Source of the DNA: Vulcanimicrobiales bacterium
GTDB taxonomy: Bacteria; Vulcanimicrobiota; Vulcanimicrobiia; Vulcanimicrobiales; Vulcanimicrobiaceae
Direction of reading: 5' to 3'
Length of the DNA: 35,395 nt
Assembly: GCA_038215615.1 (NCBI GenBank)
Contig: JBBQQR010000022.1
Coordinates: 1 to 35,395, forward strand
The translations under genes and the position numbers were made by a program. Shown in pieces: positions 3,732-35,395 of the stretch (position 1 is its first letter; the number at the start of each line of letters is the position of its first letter). Below the pieces are notes generated by a model. That model had not been told where the DNA came from. It searched no databases and saw only the letters and a program-made list of their open reading frames with translations.

Positions 3732-3734
3732 CCC

Positions 3735-7842: not shown

Positions 7843-7857
7843 CGGGAATTCCTTTCG

Positions 7858-9135
7858 CTAGTAGAGGTTTGTGTCGCCGGCGGCATGATGCACGCCAAAG
7901 ACCGCCGCATTCAAACGTGCGACCGCGTGCAGTTCGTTCTCGCGAGCTGCGGCATCGTCGGACAATGCGCTCAACGTCTCCAAGGGTATGCCCTTGCCCG
8001 CGCGCTCGCGTAAACGCGCAATGCGCAGAGCCTCCGCGGCGTTAGCTTCCTGCACGTGCGCCGTCTCCAGATTGCGCTTCGCCGCTTCGTACTCACGCCA
8101 CGCATTTACGACATCGCGCTGCGCGTACAACCGTGCTTCATCCAACGCGGCCTGCGCTTTCGCGATCGCCGCTTCCGCTACGTGCACTGCCGCAGGACGG
8201 CCACCGCCGTCTGCCAGCGGCAGGGAAATGGTCACGCCGACTTGGTATCCGCTCGCGCCCAACGCCGGATTGGATCGACCGTTGTATGTCTGCACGGAGC
8301 CCGTTGCGCTAGGCAGGTATTGCGCGCGAGCCGACGCGAGTTGCCCCTGCGCGGATGCGATCTGTGCCTGCGCGGCAAGCACTTCGGGCCGCTGCAGCAA
8401 CGCGTTGCGTTCGTAGGTGGCCGAGTGACCCGCTAACGGAAAAAGTGAAAGCCGGTCCGACAGCGTCAACGCTGAAGTCAGATCGATATCAAGCATCGCT
8501 TTCAGATTTACGAAGGCCTCATCACGATCGGCAGCTGCATCTTCAGCTGCCTGCGCTGCGCTGGCTAAAGCGGCTTGGCTCTGCGCCAGTTGATAACGCG
8601 CTGCCTTTCCGACACGATACCGATCTTGGAGATCGCGTACGTTGCGCCGCTGATACCCCACGGTTACGTCGCGCGCGCTCACGATGGCTTGCGCCAGCAA
8701 CGTCCGCTCGTATTGTTGTGCGGCGGAAAGCGCCGCATCGTTTTGTTGAGCGGCCGCCGTGAATTGCGCTGCATCCGCCGTGCGCGCCGCGGCCCACGCG
8801 CTCGCGGCGGTGGAGGGGACGAAGAGTGGTACGCTGGCGGATGCCAGCAGATACGTCTGCCGGGCAACAGGCATGCCGAGCTGAGCGATGCCGCCACTCA
8901 TCGTGGTTCCGCTCACACCGAGCTGCGGGAACAGCGTCGCGCGTGCCGCGGCAGCTTGCGCCGCAACGGCTTGCGCATCGGCCCGCGCGATACGAGAATC
9001 GAATCCGGCGGTGCGGGCGCGTGTGATCGACTGCGCGAGACTCAACGTGCCGGTCCACTCCAACGGCTGCGCCGCAGCGATCCCGAGCATACAGGCCGCA
9101 AGTGCGGCCGCCATGGCCGGCACGCGTTTACGCAT
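7858..9135 (-). CDS. TolC-family outer membrane efflux protein
   Basis: Signal peptide, LSLAQSI..A, two OEP repeats (A.LFPQL; RPEV..A...LPS). ATG 9135 overlaps the RND stop. Confidence 0.88.
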   Translation of the reverse strand: MRKRVPAMAAALAACMLGIAAAQPLEWTGTLSLAQSITRARTAGFDSRIARADAQAVAAQAAAARATLFPQLGVSGTTMSGGIAQLGMPVARQTYLLASASVPLFVPSTAASAWAAARTADAAQFTAAAQQNDAALSAAQQYERTLLAQAIVSARDVTVGYQRRNVRDLQDRYRVGKAARYQLAQSQAALASAAQAAEDAAADRDEAFVNLKAMLDIDLTSALTLSDRLSLFPLAGHSATYERNALLQRPEVLAAQAQIASAQGQLASARAQYLPSATGSVQTYNGRSNPALGASGYQVGVTISLPLADGGGRPAAVHVAEAAIAKAQAALDEARLYAQRDVVNAWREYEAAKRNLETAHVQEANAAEALRIARLRERAGKGIPLETLSALSDDAAARENELHAVARLNAAVFGVHHAAGDTNLY

Positions 9136-12100: not shown

Positions 12101-12301
12101 GAAATACGTCTCCACCTCTTGCGGCGCATACCCCGGCGTCATGGTCACGACGGCGATTAGCGGACTTTGCACGTACGGCATCATGCGCGTCGGCAAGACA
12201 TAGAGGGCCGATGCGATCGCCGCGATGACCAACGCAAAATAAAACGTAAAGACTGCAAATGGATTGCGGATTGCCCACGCGGCGATGCTACGATCGTTCA
12301 C
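9128..12301 (-). CDS. RND efflux transporter permease (AcrB/CusA/CzcA superfamily)
   Basis: 1057 aa; PQEVE..FSKPIEE, LVDDSIVV, SLTLTP, NAILL, RLSPILMT, ST.LTLFVIP. Confidence 0.95.
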   Translation of the reverse strand: MNDRSIAAWAIRNPFAVFTFYFALVIAAIASALYVLPTRMMPYVQSPLIAVVTMTPGYAPQEVETYFSKPIEERVTDLKGVRFVRSISQQGLSIVTLQFPYGYDIQRALVDTQQLVQQAQADLPYDRANLKPSYVVPVDPLNTPVLQLAVTGSGWDPVQLRQFIANDVVDALKTVPGVQQAIVFGGRQRQLQVVADRAAAASYGLSLTDIRDAIDRQNVSRSGGVVTNATSEYEIRGGQRVQSPADVVDYPIKTLGGRTIYVHDVATATDGPAEQRQVYRFNGNDAVELSIIQNPDASSPQVIAAVMQRLQQVAQRLPGLQFTPAYDNSRFVSDLKRNMFEELLIGVLLAGLVLLIFLEDVSATAIVLTAIPTCLALAVLAFAPLQLSINSSTLVGLLLAIGRLVDDSIVVIHSVHRHLAMGKTPVRAAVDGTMEVVLPIAAATGVMILAVVPLLTSGGITQIMFVGLVWPIIFALLASLAVSLTLTPLLATYLFHGRDAVRPPWRTRLDAAVFRVLAPLRMQRVRLENGYRQGLDWALRNRAIVLGGAALMTYIGLQLFPFIGSEMMPLADTGQAYAFLETTPGTSFAATSAKASAFERLLLAQPEVQRVSAEVGEQTANGYITGQAMNGVNDASYLITFMPKEQRRRSIWQIMDAVYGQMIQTVPGIRRLALKEMGSDVMASNDAPVDLLITGPNLRSLHDIADKAAALASRAPGLVQVSTSSAMQQPQEVINVDRTMASQIGLSPEQVDEQAYYAMHGGNTTGFYNPENVRHTTILIRYASAERSTPMDLRYVQIVGADGQIVPLSAIATIRQTDAPTLIERDGLRRSVSVLGYYRKGSRGEMTLFNDAEMAALAQIPLPQGYSIEMRGDMTEMMQSFARLLNAIKIAILFIFLLLVAQFRSFLQPLVMLLAIPLQLFGIFAGLLLAHQSFSTVSILGIVVANGMAVSNAILLLDLIVRKRREGLERKDAILWAGPVRLSPILMTTIVSLIVLAPVAFFPKTGVDAYSPLATVIIGGVAVSTVLTLFVIPVLYDVLDEFFAQRRRVIAVEQVDA

Positions 12302-14079
12302 GGTGAAGCCTGCGTGACTGCCTGCCCCTCGATCAGCAAAGCGGCGCCGTCCGTGACTATCAACGCGCCGCGCGGAATCGCACCTGACACGATGGCCGTC
12401 GTTCCGTCGTTGGACAACACGCGCACCGCAACGGAATGCGCCGTTCCGTCACGATCGATCCAAATTCGTGGGTTCATCGTTCCGCCGAGCACGGCGGCGG
12501 CCGGCACCGGGATGCCGCCCCGTTGCACGCGCGGGCCAACATAAATCCTAACGTTGACGAATCCGCCGGGCTGCACGGCCCGACCGGTATTTCGCACGAT
12601 CGCTTCGACGAGGGCCGTGTGCGTTTGCGGATCGGCAACCGGCGAGAGGGAGCTGACGCGGCCGTGCACGACCGAACCGTCCGCCATGGTCGCATCGAGC
12701 GGGTCTCCGACCTGCACGCGCGGTAGGTCCGTTTGCGAGACGTTCGCTTGAACGCGCAGCTCGTCGAGCACCGCAATGCGCGCGATCACCGTACCGGCTT
12801 GAACATAGCTTCCTGGATCCACCAGTCGCTTAACCACGACGCCGTCATCCGGCGCCGTGATCGATCGGTACGACGCAATCGTTGCCTGCGTCTGTGCCTC
12901 GCTTGCCGCTTGGCTATACTGGGCTCGCGCCTGGTCGACCGACGCGGCTGCATCCGACGCTTTGATGACGGCGTTGCGTAGCGCAGCTTGCGCCGACGCG
13001 TCCTGCGCGACTTCATCCTGATATTCTTGCTGCGAGACGGCGCCTTCGCGTAGGAGCATCCGTTCGCGAGTGATCTCCTGCGACCAGTATTGCGCCGCGC
13101 GTTGCTTTGCCGCAATGTCATTCTGCGCCATGCGCACGTCGTTGGGGGCATGGTGCGCCGCTTCGATCTCTGCGGCCGCTGCGGCCGCCCGCGCAGCATC
13201 GGCGGTGCTGCCGAGTTCGGATGCCTGGAGAAAGGCGATCTGCTCGCCGGCTCGCACGCGATCGCCCGTGTACACCGTAAAGTCTTGCAGAATGCCGCTG
13301 ACTCGCGCCGCCACATCCTGCATCAGGTACGGCGAAACCGTGCCCGGCGCGAGAACGGTCTGCGTCGACTCTTTCTGCGTTCCGACACGGATGGTGCGAA
13401 CCGCCACCGGCGCACTGCCCGCAACGTTTGCCATCGTGGTCATGTCCATCGTCGGCGCCGTGTAGCGTGATTGCGCGATCGCAAGCACCACGATCGCGAC
13501 GACTGCCACCGCGCCGAGCGCGAGCACAACCGGACGGCGATCGCGCTGCAAAACGAAATATCCGACGATGACCAAGATCAAGAGCGCGAAGAACGCCGTT
13601 TCCCACGGCAACGGGTTGCCGGCGCTCATGCCGGCAATTGGCGCATTTTGCGTTTTTGAAGTAATTGCGGTTGTCGTCGAAGCACTTGTACCGACGTCGT
13701 AGCGAAACGTCGCCGAACCGTCTAACGCACCCGTAAATGCAATCTGGACCGCCCATTGCGACGCCATGCCTAGAGTCGCACTGAACCGCCACGCGGTTGC
13801 GGAAGTGCGTGTCGCAAAGCCTTGCGGGCCCGTCATGTTCATCGAGGGCATTACGGTTGCAAAACGCACCGTCGCATGATCGAGCACGGACAGAGGCTCC
13901 CCGCTGACACGAACGGTGAAATCATTCGATCCGACACGCGGTGGGTCGGGCGAAACGCCGAGCGTTACTTGCGCAGATCTTCCGACACTCTGCGACAGGG
14001 GCGCCGCCGACGCAATGGCCGACGGAAGTGCCAAGGCGCTTGGCAGTATCGCGCATAAAAAAAACAGTCGCCGGATCAT
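12298..14079 (-). CDS. RND periplasmic adaptor fused to an N-terminal YtkA/FixH-like domain
   Basis: ATG 14079 overlaps the M56 stop. Signal peptide, PDPPRVG..MPSMNM domain, two TM helices, then MFP motifs (VSG..V..GDRVRAGE; ITAPDDGVV; DPQTHT; PGGFV). Confidence 0.9.
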   Translation of the reverse strand: MIRRLFFLCAILPSALALPSAIASAAPLSQSVGRSAQVTLGVSPDPPRVGSNDFTVRVSGEPLSVLDHATVRFATVMPSMNMTGPQGFATRTSATAWRFSATLGMASQWAVQIAFTGALDGSATFRYDVGTSASTTTAITSKTQNAPIAGMSAGNPLPWETAFFALLILVIVGYFVLQRDRRPVVLALGAVAVVAIVVLAIAQSRYTAPTMDMTTMANVAGSAPVAVRTIRVGTQKESTQTVLAPGTVSPYLMQDVAARVSGILQDFTVYTGDRVRAGEQIAFLQASELGSTADAARAAAAAAEIEAAHHAPNDVRMAQNDIAAKQRAAQYWSQEITRERMLLREGAVSQQEYQDEVAQDASAQAALRNAVIKASDAAASVDQARAQYSQAASEAQTQATIASYRSITAPDDGVVVKRLVDPGSYVQAGTVIARIAVLDELRVQANVSQTDLPRVQVGDPLDATMADGSVVHGRVSSLSPVADPQTHTALVEAIVRNTGRAVQPGGFVNVRIYVGPRVQRGGIPVPAAAVLGGTMNPRIWIDRDGTAHSVAVRVLSNDGTTAIVSGAIPRGALIVTDGAALLIEGQAVTQASP

Positions 14080-15041
14080 GAGAGGGAACCCATCTGCGAA
14101 CAATGCACGGCGAATGCGGCGAGCTGCGGTACTGCAACACTGGCCACCATTGTAAGCGCGAGCGCCGACGCAACCGCAAAGCGCATCGTGCTGCTCACCG
14201 GTTTGGGCGCAGAAGGCCGAAGCAACGCATCCAGGCGGCCGCGTACCATCTCAATATCGGCAAATAGCGAAGCGTGCGCCGGCGCGAGAATCGGACGCGC
14301 GACGCGCAACAGTGCGCCGGCGAGTTCGGTGCGCTCGACGTACGACAGTGCGTATTCGTCGGCGCAAAATTCGCGCGATCGCCGATAAAGCCGCACCAAA
14401 TTGTCGACAGAAAGCGGCAGCAGATCAGCAAAAAAGTGCACGGCCGGCGCGATCCGATGATCGTGCTGCAGATAATGCGCGCGCTCGTGATGGAGCGCCG
14501 CGCGCAGTTCCTCGTCGCTCAAGCGTTCGAGTGCGTTCGTCGACACATATACTGCGGGACGGCGCGTGCCGGCAAACATGACGACCGGCCGTTCCGAATC
14601 GGGCAATTCATAGACCGCAACGCCGATTTCGGCCCCAAAGCGCGCGAGCCGGTGCGACGGCGAATACGCTTGAGCGACCAGCGCATTCATTTCACGCTCG
14701 CGGCGTAGGGCAAGCAAAAGCGACCGAAGGATTGTCCCAACCATCAGCGCAGAGAGTCCACCGAACAGGACCCGGCCTGGGATCGTTTGTAGGCACGGCG
14801 ATGATGCACTGCTGGACAGTCCGTACGCAACCAATGTAATGAAGATGAAGCCCGGTGTGATCGCAGCAGCGGCCGCAAGGGCCGATTGCCATCGCCGATC
14901 GTTCTCCATGCTCACAATCTCGGGAGTGAGGCGACGCACAATGAACCATGCTATAACCGGAATAGTGAGCGCCGCGCAAAGCGATGTAAAAACTGCGCCC
15001 GACGCGATGCAGGACTGAAGCGTCTGCAGCAACGCGTTCAT
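14076..15041 (-). CDS. M56 (BlaR1-type) membrane zinc metallopeptidase without penicillin-binding domain
   Basis: HHERAH (HExxH), REFCADEYA, LA.ALLR; N-terminal TM helices; coupled to blaI by ATGA. Confidence 0.88.
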   Translation of the reverse strand: MNALLQTLQSCIASGAVFTSLCAALTIPVIAWFIVRRLTPEIVSMENDRRWQSALAAAAAITPGFIFITLVAYGLSSSASSPCLQTIPGRVLFGGLSALMVGTILRSLLLALRREREMNALVAQAYSPSHRLARFGAEIGVAVYELPDSERPVVMFAGTRRPAVYVSTNALERLSDEELRAALHHERAHYLQHDHRIAPAVHFFADLLPLSVDNLVRLYRRSREFCADEYALSYVERTELAGALLRVARPILAPAHASLFADIEMVRGRLDALLRPSAPKPVSSTMRFAVASALALTMVASVAVPQLAAFAVHCSQMGSLS

Positions 15042-15454
15042 CGCCGACGGCCCTGCCGCTGCTCTTGCAGCAACCGTTCGAACTCTTCGAGTGAAGCATC
15101 ATCATGCGCAAGTTGCTGCGCCATGTGCGCGAGCAGCGGATTGCGATAATTGCGCATCAGCCCGGTGAGTACGCCACCAACTACGCGACGCTCGAATTCA
15201 TCCCGGCTCACCGTCGCTGAAAACGCGTTCGCTTTGCCGAGTGGCTGTTTTTTGGCGTAACCCTTCGAAACCAGGGTATTGAGTGTGGTCTTCGCTGAGG
15301 AATAATGGACGGGATGTCCCCCCCGCTCGAGCCGCTCGACCACCTGGCCGACCGTCGCAGAAGCATCGATATCCCAAAGCGCGTTCAGGACAACGCTTTC
15401 AAGGGGACCGAGCACCGAGGCACTACCGGGCGTTTCAGGGCGGAAGACATGCAT
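15038..15454 (-). CDS. BlaI/MecI/CopY-family repressor
   Basis: LGPLE..VLNALW, TVGQV, YSS.KTTLNTL..KG, SRDEF; contains no Cys. Confidence 0.9.
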   Translation of the reverse strand: MHVFRPETPGSASVLGPLESVVLNALWDIDASATVGQVVERLERGGHPVHYSSAKTTLNTLVSKGYAKKQPLGKANAFSATVSRDEFERRVVGGVLTGLMRNYRNPLLAHMAQQLAHDDASLEEFERLLQEQRQGRRR

Positions 15455-15539
15455 GTGCCAACCACCTTAGCACTCCGCTCCTCGACGTCCTTCAGAGCCC
15501 TATGGTAATCATAACCACCACGCCGAGCGAGTGTCCAAA

Positions 15540-17725: not shown

Positions 17726-18085
17726 TCACCACGTCTCTGCCCCGTTTATCAGTCCGGCGCCGAACACGGCAAAACCGGGCCGCAGCAGTAAGGCCCCCAC
17801 GAAAAACAAAACCCCGGCGCAAAAAATGAAGACCGAACGGCGCGCCAGATTTTCCCACCGCCACCGCACGTCGGTGAAGCGCGGAATCACGTGAAGCAGG
17901 ACGCTCGTTGCGGCGGTGGTTGCCGAGCCGAGGGCGACAACGTGGATCCACGCAATTGCCAAGAACCCGAGCGATGAAACCGAACCTGCTATCCCGACCC
18001 AGGCGAGAAGAAGCCACGATGCGCCGTACGAAAGCTGTGCGAAAATGAGTGCGCCGGGTGGAATCCAGTGCCGCCGATTGAACAT
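17726..18085 (-). pseudogene. 3'-truncated copy of the 412-aa membrane protein gene at 28539-29777
   Basis: Near-identical for ~113 aa, then NGAETW*. Confidence 0.85.
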
Positions 18086-18580
18086 GATTGCATCCTATCA
18101 TGCCCGTTGAAAGCCGTCTCTTCGTCAAAGCCAGCCTAGTCTGGCTCTGTGCTACTTTTGCAGTGGGCGCCGTACTGCTTGCCCTCAAAGCGCTCGGATT
18201 ATCGCTTCACTATGACCTTTCGATAGTTCATGCACATATGGGTTTCGTCGGCTGGCTGGTGAACCTGGTGATGGGCATCGCGCTGTGGTTTTTGCCGGTG
18301 AACCGTGAGCGGTTTCCGGAAAATCGCGGACGGTACCCGGCGGTGATCGTACGCTTTATTTTCGCCATGCTCAACATCGGTCTCGCGCTCCGAATCGCTT
18401 TCGAGCCGCTCGTCGACAAAGCGGGACCGACGCCTTTCTATTCGGCAATGCTGCTCGCGAGCGCGGTGCTGCAGCTCGCAGCGATCGTGCTATTTGCCGC
18501 TATCGCGTGGCTGCGCGTTCGGCTGGTTTAAGGGCCGCTTACTTAATAACGCGGAAAGTCATGTGCATCTTCCCGTGGCC
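17748..18580. repeat. ~830-bp direct repeat, copy 1 (copy 2 at 29440-30273)
   Basis: Constant 11,692-bp offset with one 1-bp indel near the end; roughly 90-95% identical by eye. Confidence 0.92.
18100..18531 (+). CDS. 143-aa four-TM protein with HAH..VGW motif (heme-copper oxidase subunit I/NnrS-like module), copy 1
   Basis: MPVESRLFVKASL...HAHMGFVGWLVNLVMG.A.WFLP; mostly synonymous differences from copy 2. Confidence 0.75.
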   Translation: MPVESRLFVKASLVWLCATFAVGAVLLALKALGLSLHYDLSIVHAHMGFVGWLVNLVMGIALWFLPVNRERFPENRGRYPAVIVRFIFAMLNIGLALRIAFEPLVDKAGPTPFYSAMLLASAVLQLAAIVLFAAIAWLRVRLV

Positions 18581-18895
18581 GATGCCACAGAAGATCGCGC
18601 AACGAGCGTCAAATGTTCCGACTTTTTGCGGCGTTACCATAATAGAAGTCGGCTTGCCGGTGATCGTTACGGTTTGAGTCAAACCGATCTGCGGCACCGT
18701 TATCCCGTGCGTGCCCTGCTTGCTGACGAGGGTCAGGCGAACGGGCTGTTTGACTTTGAGGACAACGACTGCCGGCGTGAAGGAGAAATTTCGGGCAGTA
18801 ATCGTCACGCTTTTGGGCTGCGTGCTTGCGCCGGCATATAACGGCGTAACCATTGCCATGGTGGCGAGACAGAAGATAGCGAGTGTGTGTTTCAT
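18539..18895 (-). CDS. Secreted cupredoxin with CuA-type ligand set
   Basis: Signal peptide; NFSFTP, HG, C-AIF-C-GIG-H-GK-M; AGGAG RBS. Confidence 0.88.
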   Translation of the reverse strand: MKHTLAIFCLATMAMVTPLYAGASTQPKSVTITARNFSFTPAVVVLKVKQPVRLTLVSKQGTHGITVPQIGLTQTVTITGKPTSIMVTPQKVGTFDARCAIFCGIGHGKMHMTFRVIK

Positions 18896-18979: not shown

Positions 18980-19132
18980 ATGGTAGAAGTCAAGCGCTTG
19001 AGATCGACAGTCGTCTATTCAAACGGTGTCATCAATGTGCGAGGCAACGGACGCGTGGCCCATCTCGTTATCGCTTCCACCGCGGCAACGGTGAACGGTA
19101 ATCCGTTTACTATGGATCAAAGGAACAGTTGA
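18980..19132 (+). pseudogene. 50-aa chimeric ORF containing a copper-amine-oxidase N-terminal (stalk)-like fragment
   Basis: GGAGG RBS; VVYSNGVINVRGNGRVAHLVIASTAATVNGNPFTMD; ends inside the duplicated hemerythrin 3' scrap. Confidence 0.4.
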
Positions 19133-19272
19133 TGAGTGGAGTCCCAGCCTAAGCTTCTTACGTTAGGTCGCACGACAGGAAACTCCGGGCGCACATCCCG
19201 ACCGCCGGAAGCAGAGTCACGGGCGAAGGACAGTTGCGCTACGACGTTTTGTTTAGCGAGGAAGCCGTCTAA
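19118..19272 (+). pseudogene. Remnant of the hemerythrin 3' end plus an internally deleted DUF488 gene
   Basis: 19118-19167 matches 35165-35214 at 49/50. 19171-19272 reads HDRKLRAHIPTAGSRVTGEGQLRYDV..., resembling DUF488 C-termini. Confidence 0.65.
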
Positions 19273-23182: not shown

Positions 23183-23245
23183 TTAAACCGTGCTTCATTT
23201 CGGGCGACGGCACCCGTTGCCCGAGCGTTGACGCTTTTTGGGCGT

Positions 23246-23352
23246 AGTGCTAAGTCGGTTGACACATGCATGTCTTCCGCCCTGAAACGCCCGGCACCGG
23301 CTCGGTGCTTGGTCCTCTTGAGAGCGCCGCACTGAACACCCTCATTTGGTAG
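23246..23352 (+). pseudogene. Promoter and first ~25 codons of a second blaI-like gene
   Basis: ATG 23266: MHVFRPETPGTGSVLGPLESAALNTLIW*, versus MHVFRPETPGSASVLGPLESVVLNALW at 15454; shared upstream AGTGCTAAG. Confidence 0.85.
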
Positions 23353-23650
23353 TTGCGTCGTGCCCGTCAGTTGTGGAAGCGCTGTCGGATTTTGTCAGCG
23401 CGTTGTAGGTGACCGCAATTACTGCGCCGGCGATCCCTCCGGCAAACGCGATCCAGATGATTCCGCCGAGGAACGTCCACGTGCCCATCCTCATTCCGGT
23501 ACCCATTCCCATTCCGTTTGGAAACGCATTTGCGTGCATGCCCGATATCGAGAGCTGCATCGGCAGAACGAGGACTACAGCAATGGCGAGTGACCCGAGC
23601 GCAAAGCCAATGGCTAACGCAAGGGGCTTCAGCTCAAATCTGGATTGCAT
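23342..23650 (-). CDS. Two-TM membrane protein with a Met/Gly-rich loop
   Basis: AAGGAG RBS; loop GMHANAFPNGMGMGTGMRMG; ends IAVTYNAL. Confidence 0.75.
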   Translation of the reverse strand: MQSRFELKPLALAIGFALGSLAIAVVLVLPMQLSISGMHANAFPNGMGMGTGMRMGTWTFLGGIIWIAFAGGIAGAVIAVTYNALTKSDSASTTDGHDATTK

Positions 23651-23694
23651 GATTATTTCTCCTTCGTAAACGAGATTAGTGGCGTATGTGAGCT

Positions 23695-25305
23695 TTAGTG
23701 GATTTGGGTGGAGATGTACAAGGCAATATCGTGGAGGTCACGTTCGGACATTTTCCAACGCGGCATCACCGGGCTCAGCGTATCGCCGTTTTCATCGACT
23801 CCCGTCGAAATCGATCGCTCGAAAAGTGCAAGCGTCCAGGGCGTCTTTGACATTTTCGTAGAGCCCATGGAGCCCGCCTGATCTAGCATGTGGGCGTTGG
23901 ACCCAAGTTTTGCACTTATTGCTCCATCTGCGAGTAGCACGCCACCGGCGCCGTCGGGACCGTGGCAAACTGCGCAACTTTGATAAAATCGCGACGGGGT
24001 AGCCGTCGTGATTTGCGCGCCGTTCAAGTCCTTACCCGTAAGGTAAATCGAGCGCCCGTTCGCAATCGCTCCGGAATCAGCGGTCGTGGACGTGGGCATC
24101 GGCATGGCGGTCGCCGTTGCTCCGGGCATTGGCATGGCGGTCGGCATTGTTCTAGGCGGGAACCGATCACGATACCACGGCCCGGCCCAAAGCAGCTGGT
24201 ATTTTAGCGCCGGTCCCTTGCCGACGCTTGCGAGATCTTCGACTGTTAAGATGATGTTCGGTCTTACGTTGAAGGCGGCAGCGAGTATATAGTTGACTGT
24301 CAAGTTGCCTAGGCCGTCGTCGGTATGTTCGTACCGAAGATCGACGTGCAGCCACGACTGCGGAGCGTAGATCGTCTCGAACGAGACGCCGTGGCTGTTC
24401 GCCGACGGCGACGCACCGTCGTTGGGATTATTGTCTTGGCCCGCGATTCCCATCGCGATGAGTTCGTAGCGATCACCGCTGTACGAGGCAAGCGCCGCCT
24501 CACGCGTGTAGCGATCTTTCGCACCCGATGGGAGCGGATATGAACCGCTCAGGCCAGCTATACCACCGGACCATTTCGATTCGGGGGACAAGTACTGTAC
24601 CGAACCCGTCCAGGCCGTGCCCTCGCCGGCGCTACGAAAAGCACGCTCAACTGGCCCAGTCCCTTCCAAATATGACACGTTGCCTATCAATCCAAGATGT
24701 CCGAATTGCGTGTACGATGCGCCCCAACGGTTGTCGGCGATCGTCGAACCGTTCAATCCAACCTGCAAGCTCGCGAACCCATAGCCTGAGAGCGAGAGCG
24801 ACTGGCTCGTCCATGGCGCAAAGATTGGCGTCGGGAACTTTCCGATTTGCACACTGCCATTTCCGTTGGAGATTCCGTTGTAGGCGACCCACACCTGATC
24901 GACCGCCTTCGCGGGGAACCCTCCAGTTACGACAGGGACTGATGCGAAATACGAAACGTTGGGCCCGATGAAACCACCGGATAGGAACTGCACAAGCGCG
25001 CTGTGGATCGCCGGAAGCATCGGATCGGGCTGATTCGATGCATTGGCGGTAACTTCCAACGCCACCGGGAGGCTACGATTCTGCATCATTTGTAGGTGCT
25101 TATTGAGGCCTCTGGAAAAATTTGTCATCAAGACGTAACGGCCGTAACTATTGAGATGCGGCACCGCCGTGTGGCAGAGGGCGCAGTTAACGCCGCCTTG
25201 TCCGTTTGCAAATACAGGGATCGCCAACGCTGACTTTGGAGCGCCCAATGACCACGCGAGAAATATCGTCGTAGAGAGCGCCGGTATCCAAGTGCACTTC
25301 CTCAA
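23695..25305 (-). CDS. Cyc2-like cytochrome c-porin fusion with an additional C-terminal c-type cytochrome domain
   Basis: Signal peptide ALA/IPVF, N-terminal CALCH..P.LN.YGR, beta-strand-rich middle, Met/Pro/Thr linker, C-terminal CAVCH ... MPRW. Confidence 0.75.
   Translation of the reverse strand: MRKCTWIPALSTTIFLAWSLGAPKSALAIPVFANGQGGVNCALCHTAVPHLNSYGRYVLMTNFSRGLNKHLQMMQNRSLPVALEVTANASNQPDPMLPAIHSALVQFLSGGFIGPNVSYFASVPVVTGGFPAKAVDQVWVAYNGISNGNGSVQIGKFPTPIFAPWTSQSLSLSGYGFASLQVGLNGSTIADNRWGASYTQFGHLGLIGNVSYLEGTGPVERAFRSAGEGTAWTGSVQYLSPESKWSGGIAGLSGSYPLPSGAKDRYTREAALASYSGDRYELIAMGIAGQDNNPNDGASPSANSHGVSFETIYAPQSWLHVDLRYEHTDDGLGNLTVNYILAAAFNVRPNIILTVEDLASVGKGPALKYQLLWAGPWYRDRFPPRTMPTAMPMPGATATAMPMPTSTTADSGAIANGRSIYLTGKDLNGAQITTATPSRFYQSCAVCHGPDGAGGVLLADGAISAKLGSNAHMLDQAGSMGSTKMSKTPWTLALFERSISTGVDENGDTLSPVMPRWKMSERDLHDIALYISTQIH
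24094..24147. repeat. 30-bp-period repeat encoding the TAMPMP linker
   Basis: GGGCAT(C/T)GGCATGGCGGTCG at 24094 and 24124. Confidence 0.7.
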
Positions 25306-25358
25306 GGAGACATCTTCCTATTTGGCCGGTTCAGGTTAATGCGTAGTGTAACCTTTTT

Positions 25359-25763
25359 TTAAGCGGCTTCCCCAATGGCAGCCAGCAGTCGAGAGTTGAC
25401 CTCTTCGGCAACCCCACCGAGCCTGTCGTTCCCTACAACGGACATCATGGTATGCGCATTAATTGCGCTGATGAACGTCTTGCCATCCTTGCGACGAACC
25501 GTGACGTTGCACGGCAGAAGTAAACCCAACTGTTCTTCCATCTGCAGGGCTTCATGAGCGAACTGTGGATTGCAAGCGCCTAGTATCAGATAGGGCTCGC
25601 GCTCGACACCAAGCTTTTGCTTAAGCGTTGCCGCGACATCGATCTCGGATAGCACCCCGAAACCCTGTTTCTTGAGTGTCTCTGTGACACTCGCCACGGC
25701 CTGATCAAACGGCTTGGCCGACTCGATCGAAAACCCATACCGCTCGTGCACTATGTGAGCCAT
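25359..25763 (-). CDS. DUF302 domain protein
   Basis: GFGVLSEIDV..TLK.KLG, YLILGACNP, GLLLPCNV; ATG 25763. Confidence 0.9.
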   Translation of the reverse strand: MAHIVHERYGFSIESAKPFDQAVASVTETLKKQGFGVLSEIDVAATLKQKLGVEREPYLILGACNPQFAHEALQMEEQLGLLLPCNVTVRRKDGKTFISAINAHTMMSVVGNDRLGGVAEEVNSRLLAAIGEAA

Positions 25764-25891
25764 TTGTACTCTCTCTTTCTGATTGGTTATACGTGGAGCT
25801 GATCGGGTTTCGGGGAAGGGTGTTGATTGGACGTCAGGCGGCTTGGCCATCGAATCAGGAATATCTTGTGAATTTGTAGTATGCTATCTGC

Positions 25892-26392
25892 GTGGTCCTC
25901 ATCGGATTCCTTGTGGCTGCAGCGGCGATTCTCGCGGTCATGGCTGCGGTCGCGAGAACGACAATCGAGCCGGCGGCCGGGCAAGCAAATGTTACTTCCA
26001 TGGGTTATCGCTTGCGAAAGGGTTGGCTGTGGGCGCTCGCCGCTGCAGCTGTGGTTGCGCTTGCGATTTCGATACCATCGTTTCCCTATGGAAAACCAAC
26101 GACGCTTTCCGGGAAGCACTACACGGTCGTCGCATCTCAATACAGTTTTGAACTTCCGCCCGCCGTGCCGGTTGGCAGGCCCGTCGTTTTCGACGTGACC
26201 TCCAAAGATGTGAATCACGGTTTTGGCATCTACGACCCGCAAGGACGCCTCGTTGCGCAGGTTCAGGCGATGCCTGATTACGTGAATCATCTACCGATGC
26301 GGTTTAGCGTGAAAGGTCATTATCTGGTGCGTTGTCTTGAATACTGCGGCATAGCGCACGCGGCAATGCAAGGAGCTTTCGACGTAAGATGA
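25892..26392 (+). CDS. Heme-copper oxidase superfamily subunit II with CuA site (NorS-like)
   Basis: Two TM helices; DVNHGF, QAMP, C-L-E-Y-C-G-I-A-H-A-A-M. Confidence 0.9.
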   Translation: MVLIGFLVAAAAILAVMAAVARTTIEPAAGQANVTSMGYRLRKGWLWALAAAAVVALAISIPSFPYGKPTTLSGKHYTVVASQYSFELPPAVPVGRPVVFDVTSKDVNHGFGIYDPQGRLVAQVQAMPDYVNHLPMRFSVKGHYLVRCLEYCGIAHAAMQGAFDVR

Positions 26393-27834
26393 CGGGCTCG
26401 CGGCGGATCATGTGGGCGTTCCTATCTACGGGTATTGCCATTTTCGGTCTCATGACGCTGGTCGGGTTCGCAATGCGTATCGAGCAGGCGCAATGGGTTG
26501 CCTACGATCCCGGCGCGTTTTATGCATTGATGACGCTGCACGGTTCGGGCATGATTGTCGCCTTAGCGCTCTGCGGAATGGGCGGCTTGTGGTTCATCAT
26601 GGATCGCGAGCGACCGATGAATCAGGGGCTTGCGTGGTCCGCGTACGCGTTGATCGTGATCGGTGTCGTCGCAGTAATTCTGAGTGTGTTTCCCGGACGG
26701 TTTGGAGCGGCGTGGACGTTTCTCTTCCCGTTGCCATTCATCGGTGCGACGTGGCCGAGTTGGGCGACCGGAGCATTCCTTATCGGCGTTGCGCTCATCA
26801 TGCTCGGCTGGACCGTCTATTGCGTGCAGCTGCTCGGGTGCGTCCTTATGAAGTACGGCGGCCTACGCGGCGCGACGGGCTGGGATCTCGTTTTCCACCA
26901 CGACGCGTTCGTTGCATCCGGGCGCCCGGAGCCGCCGCCTGCGGCGTTCGCCGCGCTCATCACGGCTGTGGATGGACTCTTTGCGGTGGCCGGCGGCATG
27001 CTCGTCGGCGTTGCGCTCATCATCCACTGGATCGATCCAACGGTTGCCATCGATCCGCTGTGGGCAAAAAACCTCACGTATTTGTTCGGCCACACGTTCG
27101 CGAACCTTACAATTTATATGGCGATTGCCTTCGTTTATGTTGCACTTCCGCGGTACGCAAATCGCGAATGGCACACTTCGCCGGTTCTCGCGATCGCGTG
27201 GTGGGGAACGCTCCTGTTCGTCGCGACCGCGTATTTCCATCACCTGTATATGGATTTCGTGCAGCCGCGCGGCCTTCAGTACGTTGGCGAAGTCGCGTCG
27301 TATCTTGCTGCGTTTCCACCTGCCGTCGTTACGATCTTCGGCGGCGCACTATTAGTGTATCGTTCGAATTTGCGCTGGACGATGGGTTCGATGTTCATGT
27401 ACGCGGGACTCGTGGGATGGCTCATCGGCGGGGTCGGAGCGCTGATCGACGCGACCGTTCCAATCAATTCCTCACTGCATAACACGTTGTGGGTGCCCGC
27501 GCACTTCCATACGTATCTGCTCGAAGGCGTCACGTTGTTCATCCTCGGTTGGATTTTTGCGGATCTGGAAACGCGATCCGGGCTGGTGAGCTCGCTCTTA
27601 ACGCGATGGATGGTCGGCATAGGAATTTTCGGCGGCGGCGCTCTGCTGTTGTTGGGCTGGTACGTTGCAGGCGCAGCGTCCGTTCCGAGACGCTACGCGA
27701 TGCAGCCATCGCCGGGCCCCGCAATCTCCGCGTGGGCATCGGTTGGAGCGATCCTCCTCATATTTGGATTGGTGCTCTGCCTAGCCGAAGCGGTGAGGCT
27801 GGCGCGGGCGCGCAACGCGGAGCCGGTTGTATGA
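26389..27834 (+). CDS. Heme-copper oxidase superfamily subunit I, sNOR/NorY-like (putative NO reductase)
   Basis: All six His present (MTLHG, FGH, HH, HFH); helix VI reads GHTFAN rather than GHPxVY; ATGA-coupled to subunit II. Confidence 0.85.
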   Translation: MTGSRRIMWAFLSTGIAIFGLMTLVGFAMRIEQAQWVAYDPGAFYALMTLHGSGMIVALALCGMGGLWFIMDRERPMNQGLAWSAYALIVIGVVAVILSVFPGRFGAAWTFLFPLPFIGATWPSWATGAFLIGVALIMLGWTVYCVQLLGCVLMKYGGLRGATGWDLVFHHDAFVASGRPEPPPAAFAALITAVDGLFAVAGGMLVGVALIIHWIDPTVAIDPLWAKNLTYLFGHTFANLTIYMAIAFVYVALPRYANREWHTSPVLAIAWWGTLLFVATAYFHHLYMDFVQPRGLQYVGEVASYLAAFPPAVVTIFGGALLVYRSNLRWTMGSMFMYAGLVGWLIGGVGALIDATVPINSSLHNTLWVPAHFHTYLLEGVTLFILGWIFADLETRSGLVSSLLTRWMVGIGIFGGGALLLLGWYVAGAASVPRRYAMQPSPGPAISAWASVGAILLIFGLVLCLAEAVRLARARNAEPVV

Positions 27835-28547
27835 CGCTGCGCAAACTCATTGTCATCGTATCCGCGCTTGCCGCGCTCGTTTTTTCCGCGATGCCGGTGA
27901 TTACGGGCGCTCGCGACATCGGCGTGCATCAACATCACCTCGATCACGCCGTGCTGATGCTGCTCGGCGCGATCGCGGGGCTCGCATTGTATTCGGGCAG
28001 CAGCGATCGCGAATCTCCGCCGTGGCTGTGGGTTGCGGTGCTCTGTCCTTTCATCGCAATGCTGCTTATGTCTCCATCGCTTTATTCATTGGTGGATCAA
28101 ACCCCGTGGCTGCATTCGTTCGACCACATCGTCTTTGTGGTGCTCGCGGTGATGACGGCATATGCCGGCCAGCGATACGTGCGCGGCGTCGGCTGGGCCA
28201 CCGCGCTGATGCTCGAATCGATGGCGATAGTTGCAGCTTTCGGATATGGTGTCGCTCCCGCAGTCACCGTTCTTTCGCCAAGCGCGGCCGTAACACAGCG
28301 AACCGAACCTTCCGGAGATGTCGCGCACGGCAGGGTGCTCTTCGCGCAGAACTGTGCCGTGTGTCACGGTGCTCGCGGCGAGGGTGGTGAGGGGCCGCCG
28401 CTCAAGAACGAAGTATCGCGCAAGGATTTCGCCCAAGCGCAAGCGTGGATAAAGAAACCCGCGCCGCCGATGCCGGCGTTGTATCCCAATCCGCTGAGCG
28501 CAAAAGATGTCGCCGACGTCGCCGCTTTCGTCGAATCCCTAAAGTAG
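27831..28547 (+). CDS. His-rich membrane domain (CtaG/DUF1404-like) fused to cytochrome c
   Basis: ATG 27831 overlaps the upstream stop; HQHHLDH, WLHSFDH, C-terminal CAVCHG...MP. Confidence 0.8.
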   Translation: MTLRKLIVIVSALAALVFSAMPVITGARDIGVHQHHLDHAVLMLLGAIAGLALYSGSSDRESPPWLWVAVLCPFIAMLLMSPSLYSLVDQTPWLHSFDHIVFVVLAVMTAYAGQRYVRGVGWATALMLESMAIVAAFGYGVAPAVTVLSPSAAVTQRTEPSGDVAHGRVLFAQNCAVCHGARGEGGEGPPLKNEVSRKDFAQAQAWIKKPAPPMPALYPNPLSAKDVADVAAFVESLK

Positions 28548-29777
28548 CGAGATATTCGCCTGTTTCATCGCTCTCGCTCGCGCGACTACAAGATTGCACA
28601 TCATCGCGAGCCAGCCGATCATGCCGACGACGGCACCGGCGCTGACAGCGGCTGCGTTCTGCGCGAGCAGCCCAAAAGCCACGCTCGCGATTGCGAGTTG
28701 AAAAGTCGCGAATGATACCCACGAGAGGCGCGAGTCGAGCACTTCTTGCGGACGCGTTTCATCATCCTCACCGCGATAAGCCGTAAGCAGCACGCGTACA
28801 CCGATGTGATAGACATGCGCGTTGATCGCCTGTCCGATCCAGCCCGCCAACAGAACGAAACCGTAGGCGAGCTGCCATGAATTGCCGGCCAGCGTTCCCG
28901 CGCCCAGCCCCAAGCCGCAAAGCAACCACACGATCGCGGCGAGCAAGAATGCTTGCGAAGCGGTGCGCGGGCCGGCAGCGCGTCGTAGGACATCGAGGAG
29001 ATCGAGAGCATAGACGAGCGCCGCACAACCGAAGAGGATCGCGCCGGGCCAGATAAGCCAAGAGATGCCGCCAAGGCCGATCGCCAGCAGCGGAACGCCA
29101 ATCACCGTGAACGAGCCGACGGCGATGTGCGCCGCCGGAAAACGCGATCGTTCGCCGGAAATTGGACGCACCGTTCGAACTGAAACACCGAATATCAACA
29201 GCGAAAGCCATCCGAGCATTCCAAGATTCGCGTGCGCCGCCGGCAGCGACGCGATCCAGGGCGGCGTCACGTATCCCGAGATCGCGACGCTCAGCGCGAA
29301 ACCCAAGAGCGCCGTCACGACGAGGAACAGCAGCGTTATCAATAGCGCGCGCGCGATGGCGCGCTCCATACGCTCTCCGCGAAATGCCTCGACTAGTGTG
29401 GCAACAGCGGCTATCGTATATGCGAGCAACGCGAACGCGATCAATCCCGCCCCGAACACCGCAAGGCCGGGTCGCAGCAGTGCGGCCCCCACGAAAAGCA
29501 AAACCCCGGCGCAAAAAATGAAGACCGACCGGCGAGCCAGATTCTCCAATCGCCACCGCACGTCGGCGAAACGCGGAATCACGTGGAGCAGGACGCTCAT
29601 CGCGGCTGTGGCTGCCCAGCCGAGGGCCACAGCGTGGATCCATGCAATTGCTAAGAATCCAAGCGATGAAACCGAACCCGCTATCGCTGCCCAGATAAGA
29701 AGAAGCCACGACGCGCCGTGCGAAAGCTGCGCGAAGATGAGTGCGCCGGGTGGAATCCAGTGCCGCCGATTGAACAT
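28539..29777 (-). CDS. ~12-TM membrane protein with repeated H...LGW modules (NnrS/heme-copper oxidase subunit I-like)
   Basis: WIHAVALGW, AHANLGMLGW, YGFVLLAGW..HVYH; 412 aa. Confidence 0.75.
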   Translation of the reverse strand: MFNRRHWIPPGALIFAQLSHGASWLLLIWAAIAGSVSSLGFLAIAWIHAVALGWAATAAMSVLLHVIPRFADVRWRLENLARRSVFIFCAGVLLFVGAALLRPGLAVFGAGLIAFALLAYTIAAVATLVEAFRGERMERAIARALLITLLFLVVTALLGFALSVAISGYVTPPWIASLPAAHANLGMLGWLSLLIFGVSVRTVRPISGERSRFPAAHIAVGSFTVIGVPLLAIGLGGISWLIWPGAILFGCAALVYALDLLDVLRRAAGPRTASQAFLLAAIVWLLCGLGLGAGTLAGNSWQLAYGFVLLAGWIGQAINAHVYHIGVRVLLTAYRGEDDETRPQEVLDSRLSWVSFATFQLAIASVAFGLLAQNAAAVSAGAVVGMIGWLAMMCNLVVARARAMKQANISLL

Positions 29778-30273
29778 GATTGCATCCTATCATGCCCGTT
29801 GAAAGCCGTCTCTTCGTCAAAGCCAGCCTAGTCTGGCTCAGTGCGACTTTTGCCGTGGGCGCCGTACTGCTGGCCCTCAAAGCGCTCGGATTATCGCTTC
29901 ACTATGACCTTTCGATAGTTCATGCACATATGGGTTTCGTCGGCTGGCTGGTGAACTTGGTGATGGGCGTCGCGCTCTGGTTTTTGCCGGTGAACCGAGA
30001 GAAGTTTCCGGAAAATCGCGGACGGTACCCGGCGGTGACCGTCCGCTTCATTTTCGCCATGCTCAACATCGGCCTCGTGCTGCGCATCGCCTTTGAGCCG
30101 CTCGTCGACAAAGCGGGACCAACGCCTTTCTATTCGGCAATGCTGCTCGCGAGCGCGGTGCTGCAGCTCGCAGCGATCGTGCTATTTGCCGCTATCGCGT
30201 GGCTGCGCGTTCGGCAGGTTTAAGGGCCGCTTACTTAATAACGCGGAAAAGTCATGTGCATCTTCCCGTGGCC
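29440..30273. repeat. ~830-bp direct repeat, copy 2; includes a 3' scrap of the cupredoxin gene (30231-30273)
   Basis: Matches 17748-18580. Confidence 0.92.
29792..30223 (+). CDS. 143-aa four-TM HAH..VGW protein, copy 2
   Basis: Paralog of 18100-18531 with ~6 aa differences. Confidence 0.75.
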   Translation: MPVESRLFVKASLVWLSATFAVGAVLLALKALGLSLHYDLSIVHAHMGFVGWLVNLVMGVALWFLPVNREKFPENRGRYPAVTVRFIFAMLNIGLVLRIAFEPLVDKAGPTPFYSAMLLASAVLQLAAIVLFAAIAWLRVRQV

Positions 30274-31197: not shown

Positions 31198-32877
31198 TCA
31201 GATATAGGGCAAAAGGTCAAAGTACTCGTCGTCTTCGTTGACCCCGCCGCGACCTTTGCCGATCGTCTTCTCCGTCTCGATGAAGCGGATTTCGCGGATC
31301 CACTTGACCATCTTGAAACCCAGCTGATTTTCAACGCGCAATCGAAGCGGTGCACCGTGCACCTGTGGAAGGGGCGCGTCGTTCATTTCGTAGGCGAGGA
31401 GACACTCCGGTTTGACGACATCCTCGAGCCGCTGTGTATCGTAATAGACACCGCCGAAAGTCCCTTCCCCGAACGATATGAACTCGACGACGCGCGCGGC
31501 CGGCAGCGGCTTCACAAATCCAATCAGCCGCACCATCGAGATACCACCCCACTGAGCGACGCCGCTCCAACCCTGAATACAATGATGCAACGCCACGTGC
31601 TCGTCGTACCCCAGCGCCCGTATCTCTTCGAGACTCAAATCGGCGGGATTCTCTACGCAGCCGCTGATGCGCAACCGGTAATCGCGGAAGTCGCCGGCCG
31701 CGAGCCGTTGCCATTCACCGGAATCCGGTATCTTGCCGTTTGTCCAGAAGTACGGCGAGATGTCTTTACGCGTGTAGCGCTCCGCCGGATTGAAGCGCTT
31801 CGAAGCGCCCACGCCCAATTCAAGCGGGAAGATAAGCATCTTCTGAAGGCGTTGAATGGCACGGGGATAGCGCCAGGCGAGAATGTGCGCGGCGGCCCAG
31901 GATGCGATCACGACGCCGAGGCCAATGCAGCCGAGGATCAACCCAATTGGATGTGTATCGTCCGTGCCTATAACGATATGATTGAAGTTCCGTTGCGCTC
32001 CGGTCGAGAGTACCAGCGTGACGTGCACGATAGTGAACGCGATATATCCGAGCAGGAGCAGGAAGTGGAGCGAGCGGCCACCCTGACGTCCGCCGAAGAT
32101 CCGCGGATACCAAGGGAATGCGTTATCGAGCGCCGGCGACATTGCGATTCCGGTCAAGATGGAGAGCGGTGCCATGATGAACACGACACCGAAGTATCCA
32201 AGCTGTTGAAGCGCGTTGTACGCGTAGTAGCCGTTCGGCTCGACCGGAAAGTGGAAGGTTGCGTAGTGTACGAAAACATCCCATGCATGCGGAAAGATCG
32301 CCCACGATGTTGGAACCAGGCGCGGCCATTGGCCGCTGATGAACAAGATGCCGACGTACGCCACCCCGGTGAGAACGAAGCCATAGTCGGTGATGAAATG
32401 CCACGACCGGCCCATTCCAATCGTGTGCCGGTAACCGGGCAGCGCGATGATGGGCGAGATATAGCGCGCGTCTTCCTTTGCGGTCCAGACGCGATCTTTG
32501 GGAACGGTCAGCGGCGTCAACCGTAACCACTCGGTCCCCGGAGTACAATGGTTGTTCCAATAAAGCCGGGGATGATCCATGAGAATTGAGAGGCCGCTGC
32601 GCATCAGCAAAAACAGAAAGAACAGATTCGCATAATGGGTCCAACGAATCCATATGGGAAAGCCGCGCGGCGCGCCACTCGACGCGCCGGCGGTAACCAC
32701 GGCGACCGGAGATGACGCGGAGTGGATGCCGAGCGTCAGTAGTTGCAGCCATGCGAGCGCGATCGGAATGGCAATGAAGGCGATGAGCCAGATGACGTAA
32801 CGGCGTCGTAAGATGGCGACCGTGCGCCGATCGTTTGGTAGATGAACCCGTTCGTGCGCATCATCGAAACGGACCAT
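31198..32877 (-). CDS. Cytochrome b domain fused to a sulfite-oxidase-family (MsrP/YuiH-like) molybdopterin domain
   Basis: RWTHYAN, RSWHF, YNALQQL.Y, RSLHF...HV (heme His); HHCIQGWS (Mo Cys), HGAPLRLR....GFKMVKWI. Confidence 0.88.
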   Translation of the reverse strand: MVRFDDAHERVHLPNDRRTVAILRRRYVIWLIAFIAIPIALAWLQLLTLGIHSASSPVAVVTAGASSGAPRGFPIWIRWTHYANLFFLFLLMRSGLSILMDHPRLYWNNHCTPGTEWLRLTPLTVPKDRVWTAKEDARYISPIIALPGYRHTIGMGRSWHFITDYGFVLTGVAYVGILFISGQWPRLVPTSWAIFPHAWDVFVHYATFHFPVEPNGYYAYNALQQLGYFGVVFIMAPLSILTGIAMSPALDNAFPWYPRIFGGRQGGRSLHFLLLLGYIAFTIVHVTLVLSTGAQRNFNHIVIGTDDTHPIGLILGCIGLGVVIASWAAAHILAWRYPRAIQRLQKMLIFPLELGVGASKRFNPAERYTRKDISPYFWTNGKIPDSGEWQRLAAGDFRDYRLRISGCVENPADLSLEEIRALGYDEHVALHHCIQGWSGVAQWGGISMVRLIGFVKPLPAARVVEFISFGEGTFGGVYYDTQRLEDVVKPECLLAYEMNDAPLPQVHGAPLRLRVENQLGFKMVKWIREIRFIETEKTIGKGRGGVNEDDEYFDLLPYI

Positions 32878-34728: not shown

Positions 34729-35199
34729 ATGGATGCGATTATGTTATTGAAAGCCGACCACGCGAAAGTCGGCGGCCTTCTGGAGGAAATCGACCGTTTG
34801 AGCGAGTCCGCGCACGCAGAGCGCCGCGAAATCTTTGAAAAGATCGACCACGAGCTCAGGGTGCATTCTAAAATCGAAGAAACGATCTTCTATCCAGCGT
34901 TGAAAAAGAAAGCTAACACCGACAAGGATGACGGCGCGAAGCAGGAAGTACTCGAGGCGTACGAAGAGCACGCCAACGTTAAGAACATGTTAGAAAAACT
35001 CGAAGAGACGGATGCAACCGACGAAACGTACAACGCGAAGCTGCAAGTCCTGAGCGAGCTTATCAAGCACCACGTCCATGAAGAAGAACACGAAATGTTC
35101 AAGGAAGCGCGCAGCCTCATGGACGAGACAGAACTCGAAGAACTCGGCAAGGAATTAGCGCGCGCAAAGGAACAGTTGATGAGTGGAGCCCCAGCCTAA
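34729..35199 (+). CDS. Hemerythrin/HHE-domain protein
   Basis: LLKADH, H...EETIFYP, EEH, HHVHEEE..MF; GGGAG RBS. Confidence 0.9.
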   Translation: MDAIMLLKADHAKVGGLLEEIDRLSESAHAERREIFEKIDHELRVHSKIEETIFYPALKKKANTDKDDGAKQEVLEAYEEHANVKNMLEKLEETDATDETYNAKLQVLSELIKHHVHEEEHEMFKEARSLMDETELEELGKELARAKEQLMSGAPA

Positions 35200-35395
35200 G
35201 CTTCTTACGTTAGGGCACGGAACCGCAACCGCGGACGAACTTGCGGCCCTGATACGCGATGCCGGCATCGAGCTGATCGTGGACGTCCGGACGGTGCCCA
35301 AGAGCCGCCGGCATCCCCACTTCTGGCGCGAAGCAATGGAAGTCTGGGTTCCGGAACGCAGTGGGAGCGCATATCTCTGGCAACCGGCGCTCGGC
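35183..35395 (+). CDS. DUF488-family protein, runs off the window end
   Basis: Manual translation from GTG 35183: LLTLGHG...LIVDVRTVPKSRRHPHF...Y.W..ALG. Confidence 0.8.
   Translation, partial: MEPQPKLLTLGHGTATADELAALIRDAGIELIVDVRTVPKSRRHPHFWREAMEVWVPERSGSAYLWQPALG

Follow-up and report, generated by a model that had tools for sequence, protein, structure and literature searches.

A predicted sNOR-type nitric oxide reductase and a two-haem Cyc2-like cytochrome-porin, probably paired incidentally on a gene island of a Vulcanimicrobiales bacterium

The rus operon of Acidithiobacillus (cyc2-cyc1-cup-coxBACD-rus), as described in the accessible text of PMC10654088, clusters the genes of a porin-cytochrome, a cytochrome c, a cupredoxin, and a CuA-type haem-copper enzyme. 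For Ferrigenium straubiae (culture KS), the available part of 10.64898/2026.01.22.701106 describes candidate outer-membrane Fe(II) oxidases together with a B-family-derived nitric oxide (NO) reductase in one cell and already proposes that Fe(II) oxidation is coupled to this B-lineage enzyme (eNOR); the eNOR operon, as described there, does not include cyc2. Here, a stretch of 35,395 nucleotides (the window), which represents contig JBBQQR010000022.1 (C22) of a Vulcanimicrobiales genome (assembly GCA_038215615.1; G000), was analysed with respect to two divergent gene blocks that encode a Cyc2-like cytochrome-porin and a predicted NO reductase of the sNOR type. The initial annotation had regarded the region 23342..30273 as a candidate module wiring outer-membrane metal oxidation to NO reduction, and had named as the alternative that the adjacency is an accident of a mosaic region. 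We consider it rather probable that the blocks were acquired separately, one as the cassette of an sNOR that scavenges NO and the other as that of a two-haem porin probably related to copper, with no dedicated wire between them. The pairing in the window probably is incidental and a product of gene shuffling, which agrees with that alternative and is indicated by the lack of conserved linkage.

The genes named by the initial annotation, their divergent orientation, and the 128-bp spacer between the DUF302 and subunit II starts (25764..25891) were all confirmed in place. The left block, on the minus strand, comprises the genes of a DUF302 protein (25359..25763), a two-haem Cyc2-like cytochrome-porin of 536 residues (type A; 23695..25305), and a two-helix membrane protein with a Met/Gly-rich loop (Met-loop protein; 23342..23650). 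The right block, on the plus strand, encodes sNOR subunit II (25892..26392), subunit I (26389..27834), and a third protein (gene 3; 27831..28547). Linkage of the two blocks was assessed in 250 family genomes besides G000 (251 in all; G numbers) and in 80 related sNOR loci (related loci carry L numbers). Type A orthologues were found in 22 of the 250 genomes (20 near full length, two cut by contig ends); left out of this count were matches of 48-57% identity, most of them shorter or with one haem (e.g., in G057, G018, and G150), none of which shared a contig with an sNOR match. An sNOR was present in 53 genomes (including the unpublished G028) and occurred together with type A in 18, yet in none of these 18 were both genes located on one contig. 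No sNOR was detected in 27 type A orthologue loci read to as much as 9 kb, 23 of which extend at least 1.4 kb on the relevant side and four of which have no upstream room (some are redundant, and one contains the one-haem form). Type A was likewise absent from all 80 sNOR loci, eight of which contained paralogues or their fragments. Between the window and the four closest sNOR loci, homologous DNA is restricted to 25894-30222 and thus ends at the start of subunit II, and three of these loci have phosphoketolase and acetate kinase genes directly upstream. The spacer had no homologue past position 25780 among the fetched loci. Thus, no relative examined repeats the pairing, whose persistence across genomes the initial annotation had suggested as a check, and a conserved unit of type A porin and sNOR is not supported.

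Besides the missing linkage and the end of homology at subunit II, separate acquisition is supported by mobile genes, duplicated remnants, and a contrast in base composition. The 2.2-Mb genome has a completeness rating of 100%, and C22 has a G + C content of 0.577, lower than that of most large contigs. Encoded on this contig are an integrase, a primase-polymerase, MntP, a catalase, and a haemerythrin, as well as an RND efflux operon that includes a BlaI/CopY-type repressor. The G + C content at third codon positions was 0.62-0.65 in the left-block genes and 0.72 in subunit I, at a genome mean of 0.73 and a fifth percentile of 0.66. Three duplicated remnants are located on the island: an 834-bp copy, the start of a repressor gene, and a 57-bp piece. 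The repressor remnant (23242..23337, plus strand; 84% like 15383-15478) consists of the upstream region and first ~25 codons of a BlaI/CopY-family gene, and the 57-bp repeat occurs at 19118-19174 and 35165-35219, before the catalase and after the haemerythrin, respectively. The 834-bp duplicate is 92.6% identical to 17748-18580, also copies a small His-module gene and part of a large one, and ends in a cupredoxin scrap (30224..30273, minus strand), the last ~13 codons (GHGKMHMTF...) of a CuA-type cupredoxin. The intact soluble protein that is the source of this scrap (H...CAIFCGIGHGKM; 18539..18895, minus strand) is encoded outside 23342..30273. The scrap, a duplication end with a frameshift, was ruled out as a working gene; its presence, as named by the initial annotation, was confirmed. 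The junction of the blocks is bridged with zero differences by a 4426-bp contig of run X1 covering 25341-29766 (DUF302, spacer, and oxidase genes), and an obvious misassembly thus was rejected; X1 may be the source of the window, and its contig therefore is not independent support. Runs X2 and X3 yielded small shares only, in short and divergent contigs.

Subunit I was identified by alignment and tree. It has six His, the series H235-x3-N239-x3-Y243, Y250, and T315. Among solved structures ba3 is nearest, and N239 aligns with the cross-linked Tyr237 of ba3; unlike in the O2-reducing haem-copper oxidases of the A, B, and C families, Asn thus replaces the tyrosine of the His-Tyr cross-link. Across the window protein and those of the 80 related loci, H51, H235, H284, H285, H372, H374, N239, Y243, and Y250 were invariant (81/81), T315 was kept in 78, and Ala, Val, or Thr occupied the position equivalent to Ser309 (channel positions were matched to the B. 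azotoformans numbering by offset from the Asn). The sNOR column in Dataset S1 of Murali et al. (2024; PMC11214002) lists N243, Y247, Y254, T319, no Ser309, and E255. All of these match except E255, and subunit I was assigned to the sNOR on this basis. The E255 equivalent is Val in the window and in 78 of the 81 proteins, Glu in R. pomeroyi, and Ala in T. roseum. Both genomes are counted as sNOR-bearing in the accessible part of PMC11214002, and the Ala of the T. roseum protein suggests that this feature may not be universal; another Glu, E301, was kept in 75 of 81. In a quick tree with plasmid-borne proteins as sNOR references, window-type subunits I formed one clade with the R. pomeroyi and T. 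roseum proteins (SH-aLRT 90), separate from the A, B, C, and cNOR-like rows. A search that started from a distant subunit I did not retrieve any named sNOR of a nitrifier or of Bacillus from a 5.8-billion-protein set. The closest named relatives belong to the Vulcanimicrobiota (Eremiobacterota), with a Ca. Rubrimentiphilum record on top (87%), and 30 of the 44 places in Dataset S6 (PMC11214002) record sNOR in several genera of the Baltobacteraceae, at least in Rubrimentiphilum, Cybelea, Tumulicola, and SCRA01 genomes. The sNOR of this family is thus already catalogued as a putative NO reductase, and the NO-reducing function assumed by the initial annotation is consistent with the missing O2-reductase Tyr, the residue set, and the clade, from which the activity is predicted.

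With the described sNOR (PMC11214002; NorSY of ammonia oxidisers), the window enzyme shares a B-family-derived subunit I with Asn for Tyr, the Tyr/Tyr/Thr set, and a CuA subunit II (ligands H...CLEYCGIAHAAM; pattern H...CxExCxxxHxxM), which is present in 80 of 80 related loci. It differs by the Val in place of B. azotoformans E255, by a host in which no nitrite reductase was found, and by a third gene that does not encode SenC/SCO. According to sequence comparison, gene 3 instead encodes a class I cytochrome c and, fused to it, a four-helix membrane domain rich in His, with H35, H36, H39, H95, and H99 invariant. It follows subunit I in 75 of the 80 loci, and 39 of 73 called homologues likewise contain the fused haem domain. 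Pfam Caa3_CtaG is a weak lead for the membrane domain (3 of 18 members match, best E 0.19). In L003 (7260-7490), the sNOR block begins just past a tRNA-like sequence (by eye) and acetate-kinase remnants, a start context which suggests that the block moves as a unit.

The type A porin is built like Cyc2 as defined in the accessible text of Keffer et al. (10.1101/228056), with an N-terminal CxxCH, a PxL four residues downstream (CALCHTAVPHL), a length of >365 residues, and a 16-strand barrel. It consists of a signal region, a CxxCH at 41-45, a barrel at ~75-375, a Met/Pro linker, and a C-terminal cytochrome c that contains a CxxCH at 444-448 and a Met-rich loop. The top structural match of the predicted 16-strand fold (mean pLDDT 71, below 50 in the N-terminal haem region and linker) was OprP (2O4V; Z 25.4, root-mean-square deviation 2.3, 274 aligned), the template named for Cyc2. 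The cytochrome-porin call of the initial annotation was borne out by these motifs and the model, and the second haem is added here. Despite this likeness, type A was not filed as Cyc2 because two defining features fail: it reads AIPVFANGQ at the AxPxFAR[Q/K][T/Y] position (the strict motif occurs in 0 of 96 homologues), and instead of a single haem it has a second cytochrome c, fused via the linker. Two CxxCH motifs were found in 70 of the 96 homologues, and on sequence criteria this cytochrome-porin-cytochrome fusion family departs from the one-haem Cyc2 definition. A literature search excluding subscription papers retrieved no description of a second haem in Cyc2 or of such a fusion. Cyc2-like genes have been noted before in this phylum in the accessible portions of PMC8357290 and PMC13594681, and its sole cultured member possesses an outer membrane, as stated in the available text of PMC9758169. 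NCBIfam offered no name for the porin, DUF302, Met-loop, and NnrS-like genes (for the latter see below), and an atlas search with the barrel returned unnamed clusters only. The Met-loop protein has a weak, below-cut-off match to DUF5676 and homologues in nine of the 250 family genomes.

The DUF302 gene accompanies type A in several loci. In L117, the porin, DUF302, and Met-loop genes are together again, in another order and without sNOR, and L084 (partly also L083) contains the cassette cupredoxin-DUF302-Met-loop-porin-DUF4396. This cassette rests on the unpublished genomes G019 and G171, which are also included in the 22 type A genomes, the 18 genomes with both genes, the 53 sNOR genomes, and, below, the 35 type B/sNOR genomes and the cupredoxin comparison (14/36). 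In L131/L132, a catalase 93% like that of the window adjoins type A, and the sequenced stretch contains no sNOR. These two loci represent a sister island with catalase, two-haem porin, DUF302, cupredoxin, and type B porin.

In L111/L138, type A adjoins a YHS/HMBD P-type ATPase and DUF411, in L134 and L166 it adjoins P-type ATPases, and in L136 its neighbours are DUF305 and DUF302. Met-rich loops, DUF411, and DUF305 have roles in copper handling. The other two haem-porins of G000 adjoin a multicopper oxidase and a cupredoxin/SCO-like pair, respectively (by eye). The type A cassette therefore is probably copper-related, a reading that stays only moderate because most other type A loci lie amid housekeeping rather than copper genes. 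On entering the barrel, a metal, probably copper, would give an electron to the plug haem or take one from it; the second haem, tethered behind the barrel, would act as the relay into the periplasm, and the Met-rich loops may bind Cu(I). As to the paralogues themselves, the porin-cytochrome at G000:C3:43227-46363 has a second haem and a YtkA-like tail, is directly followed by the multicopper oxidase, and has 31-32% matches in congeners. The third porin-cytochrome (G000:C5:4678-7458) occurs with a plastocyanin-like cupredoxin, an SCO-like gene, and a two-component pair (by eye), and G000:C6:26959-28800 encodes a multicopper-oxidase domain that, as judged by eye, seems to be joined to a ZIP-like membrane domain.

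In G000, no NirK over the cut-off and no NirS, NIR_SIR, NosZ, or RuBisCO was detected. Three weak NirK hits resemble multicopper oxidases, and the molybdopterin hits resemble formate dehydrogenase and NuoG (by eye). NirK-like matches, all below the cut-off, were found in 11 of the 251 genomes and in three of 53 sNOR carriers. The haem-copper oxidases of G000 are caa3, cbb3, and sNOR. Since no nitrite reductase was found, the sNOR is an orphan and depends on an outside source of NO, in agreement with detoxification as well as with the metal/nitrite chemistry invoked by the initial annotation. The sNOR is predicted to remove NO produced externally by acid or Fe(II)-driven nitrite chemistry or by neighbours. 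Electrons would pass from the periplasmic cytochrome c pool, or from the cytochrome c of gene 3, to CuA and the low-spin haem, and the Tyr-less binuclear site would convert 2 NO to nitrous oxide (N2O), the presumed end product.

A one-haem paralogue of the porin (type B), which almost invariably has the gene of a soluble CuA-type cupredoxin in front of it, has to be considered in weighing this reading against others. It reads AMPPFAKAY at the AxPxFAR position, which is nearer to the Cyc2 motif and also not strict, and is present in 139 of the 251 genomes (positions are listed for 131; the unpublished G041, G134, G029, G021, and G109 are included), most of which have no sNOR. Several findings weigh against separate cassettes. 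In six of 35 type B/sNOR genomes (the six represent four genera, and one has an extra three-haem cytochrome), type B and its cupredoxin follow sNOR on the same strand at a distance of at most 3.5 kb, and in 13 of the 35 (eight genera; all 13 published) they are within 13.5 kb of it, at a chance expectation of ~1% per copy by our own arithmetic; these genomes overlap the 80 sNOR loci, and the sets thus are not independent. The order subunit II, subunit I, cytochrome c, cupredoxin, porin-cytochrome was found on one strand in L035, L042, L046, L057, and L036 (frameshifted). G000 has no type B match at the threshold used, as opposed to eight of nine congeners, and hence type A could stand in for type B. 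Moreover, sNOR occurs in 18 of 22 type A genomes versus 35 of 228 others, a co-occurrence inflated by kinship, as a single genus contributes 11 of the 22; within genera that include genomes with and without type A, a weak hand count gave sNOR in ~4/6 with type A versus ~9/30. Many contigs are short, the third-position G + C content of subunit II is also low (0.575), and shared periplasmic carriers make cross-talk possible without linkage. These observations leave a small but real chance to a chain in which Fe(II) or some other extracellular reductant is oxidised by the haem-porin and the electrons travel through the second haem or the CuA cupredoxin to an sNOR that respires chemically formed NO, type A having replaced type B in G000. 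The eNOR proposal for F. straubiae lends it some precedent. That organism, however, has Cyc2, MtoAB, eNOR, its own Nar/Nir, and carbon fixation according to the same source, in contrast to an sNOR and no Nir found here. The relatives' sNOR-cupredoxin-porin strings are also what comes closest to the rus operon, from which the window itself differs by divergent blocks that are linked in none of the 18 other genomes, a CuA-type cupredoxin motif, a mere scrap of that gene adjacent, a Tyr-less enzyme, and no RuBisCO found. Against the chain stand not only this unlinked pair and the many type B genomes without sNOR but also the position of type B near the Tyr-bearing B-family O2 reductase, which is about as frequent or more so (14 of 80 genomes within 3.5 kb and 22 of 80 within 6 kb, including the unpublished G109) and weakens an NO-specific reading. 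Type B is otherwise surrounded by USP, BON, radical-SAM, CRP-type, and two-component genes, i.e., a low-oxygen stress setting, and shared residence on islands may explain its proximity to sNOR. Finally, the strict Cyc2 motif is absent from all 96 type A homologues, and one of the six linked sNORs is broken (G182). The metal-to-NO connection drawn by the initial annotation therefore did not stand for the specific pair and retains support at the family level, where type B and cupredoxin follow sNOR and type A co-occurs with it. A literature search, again excluding subscription papers, found nothing joining sNOR with Cyc2, nitric oxide, and iron oxidation.

The low-oxygen genes that accompany related loci, the lack of a nitrite reductase in most carriers, and the absence from G000, at the threshold used, of the B-family oxidase found in 127 of the 251 genomes would also suit a high-affinity, NO-tolerant O2 reductase. 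The region would then represent either a chain from Fe(II) to O2 resembling that of the rus operon or no more than an oxidase for low oxygen; for N. europaea, a role in scavenging O2 has been put forward (accessible text of PMC6967387). We regard an O2 reductase as improbable here because the cross-linking Tyr is Asn in 81 of 81 proteins, caa3 and cbb3 are already encoded in the genome, and an NnrS-like gene is adjacent. Furthermore, according to the accessible part of PMC11214002, the Tyr-less eNOR acts on NO but not on O2, and sNOR is a predicted NO reductase that shares the bNOR site. The recurrence of type B and cupredoxin beside CuA-bearing oxidases of two families could, on the other hand, mean that the pair supplies copper, reducing and importing it and loading CuA sites. 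For about 14 of 36 homologues of the window cupredoxin, a hand comparison placed a haem-porin no more than 1.1 kb away ( the unpublished G134 and G109 are among the 36), and the YtkA-like tail of the C3 paralogue and the SCO-like neighbour of the C5 paralogue (by eye) would fit such a role. Copper binding or transport by the pair is only putative, however, and type A is linked to no oxidase (0/18 for each family), which makes this explanation very improbable. Two separately acquired cassettes thus remain the preferred reading.

The spacer contains no FNR-like box at up to two mismatches; such boxes are present in nine of 77 sNOR upstream regions. A promoter scan yielded two sites versus 3.0 expected, none of them inside the spacer. 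Separate -10-like hexamers were seen by eye, TATAAC ahead of DUF302 and TATGCT 6 nt ahead of the subunit II GTG. With TATGCT so close upstream and no ribosome-binding site (25880-25894), the subunit II transcript is possibly leaderless, and L004 is similar.

Beyond gene 3 follow a large NnrS-like His-module membrane protein (28539..29777, minus strand) and a small His-module membrane protein (29780/29792..30223, plus strand), each found near sNOR in 15 of the 80 loci. The former has no Pfam hit and was named after an atlas lead (score 0.95), the nearest atlas clusters being auto-named NnrS family; the latter has a weak COX1 match below the cut-off. The genes stand head to head with starts 2-14 bp apart (29777-29792), an order kept in the four closest loci and replaced by co-orientation in others. 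Elsewhere in the window, a tyrosine integrase and a primase-polymerase/DUF3987 gene (1090-5936) represent a mobile element that has integrated at the left end of the island. The RND efflux operon comes next (7444-15454); its products include a membrane-fusion protein with a YtkA domain, a separate YtkA lipoprotein, and the two BlaI/M56 regulators. A molybdopterin oxidoreductase domain is fused to a cytochrome b561-like domain at 31198-32877; homologues of this fusion are located immediately after sNOR in L008 (76%) and near sNOR in L075. Pieces of the C22 contig end recur on G000:C36. Among related loci, L155:6901-10817 contains a broken sNOR followed on one strand by a cytochrome c, a cupredoxin, a three-haem cytochrome c, and a porin-cytochrome, and an intact B-family oxidase adjoins this string. 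Type B and cupredoxin beside a B-family O2 reductase (e.g., in L159, L162, L168, and L127) represent a rus-like arrangement in the Vulcanimicrobiota, which may merit separate study.

As a tentative and rather unlikely generalisation, Vulcanimicrobiota of acidic soils and sediments may combine haem-copper enzymes of the B lineage with Cyc2-like haem-porins and CuA cupredoxins that are interchangeable. With a B-family oxidase this would give a rus-like route to O2. With sNOR it would give an extracellular Fe(II)-to-NO route that needs no nitrite reductase, harvests NO from chemodenitrification, and releases N2O, and in G000 a two-haem porin with a fused periplasmic relay would have replaced the usual one. 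The relatives' strings of porin, cupredoxin, and oxidase or sNOR genes are concrete operons bearing on electron uptake from outside in abundant acid-soil bacteria, and those linked to sNOR bear on whether this predicted NO reductase reduces NO or O2. If the NO route is true, it would constitute a biological sink for chemically made NO and a source of N2O that surveys of nir and norB miss.

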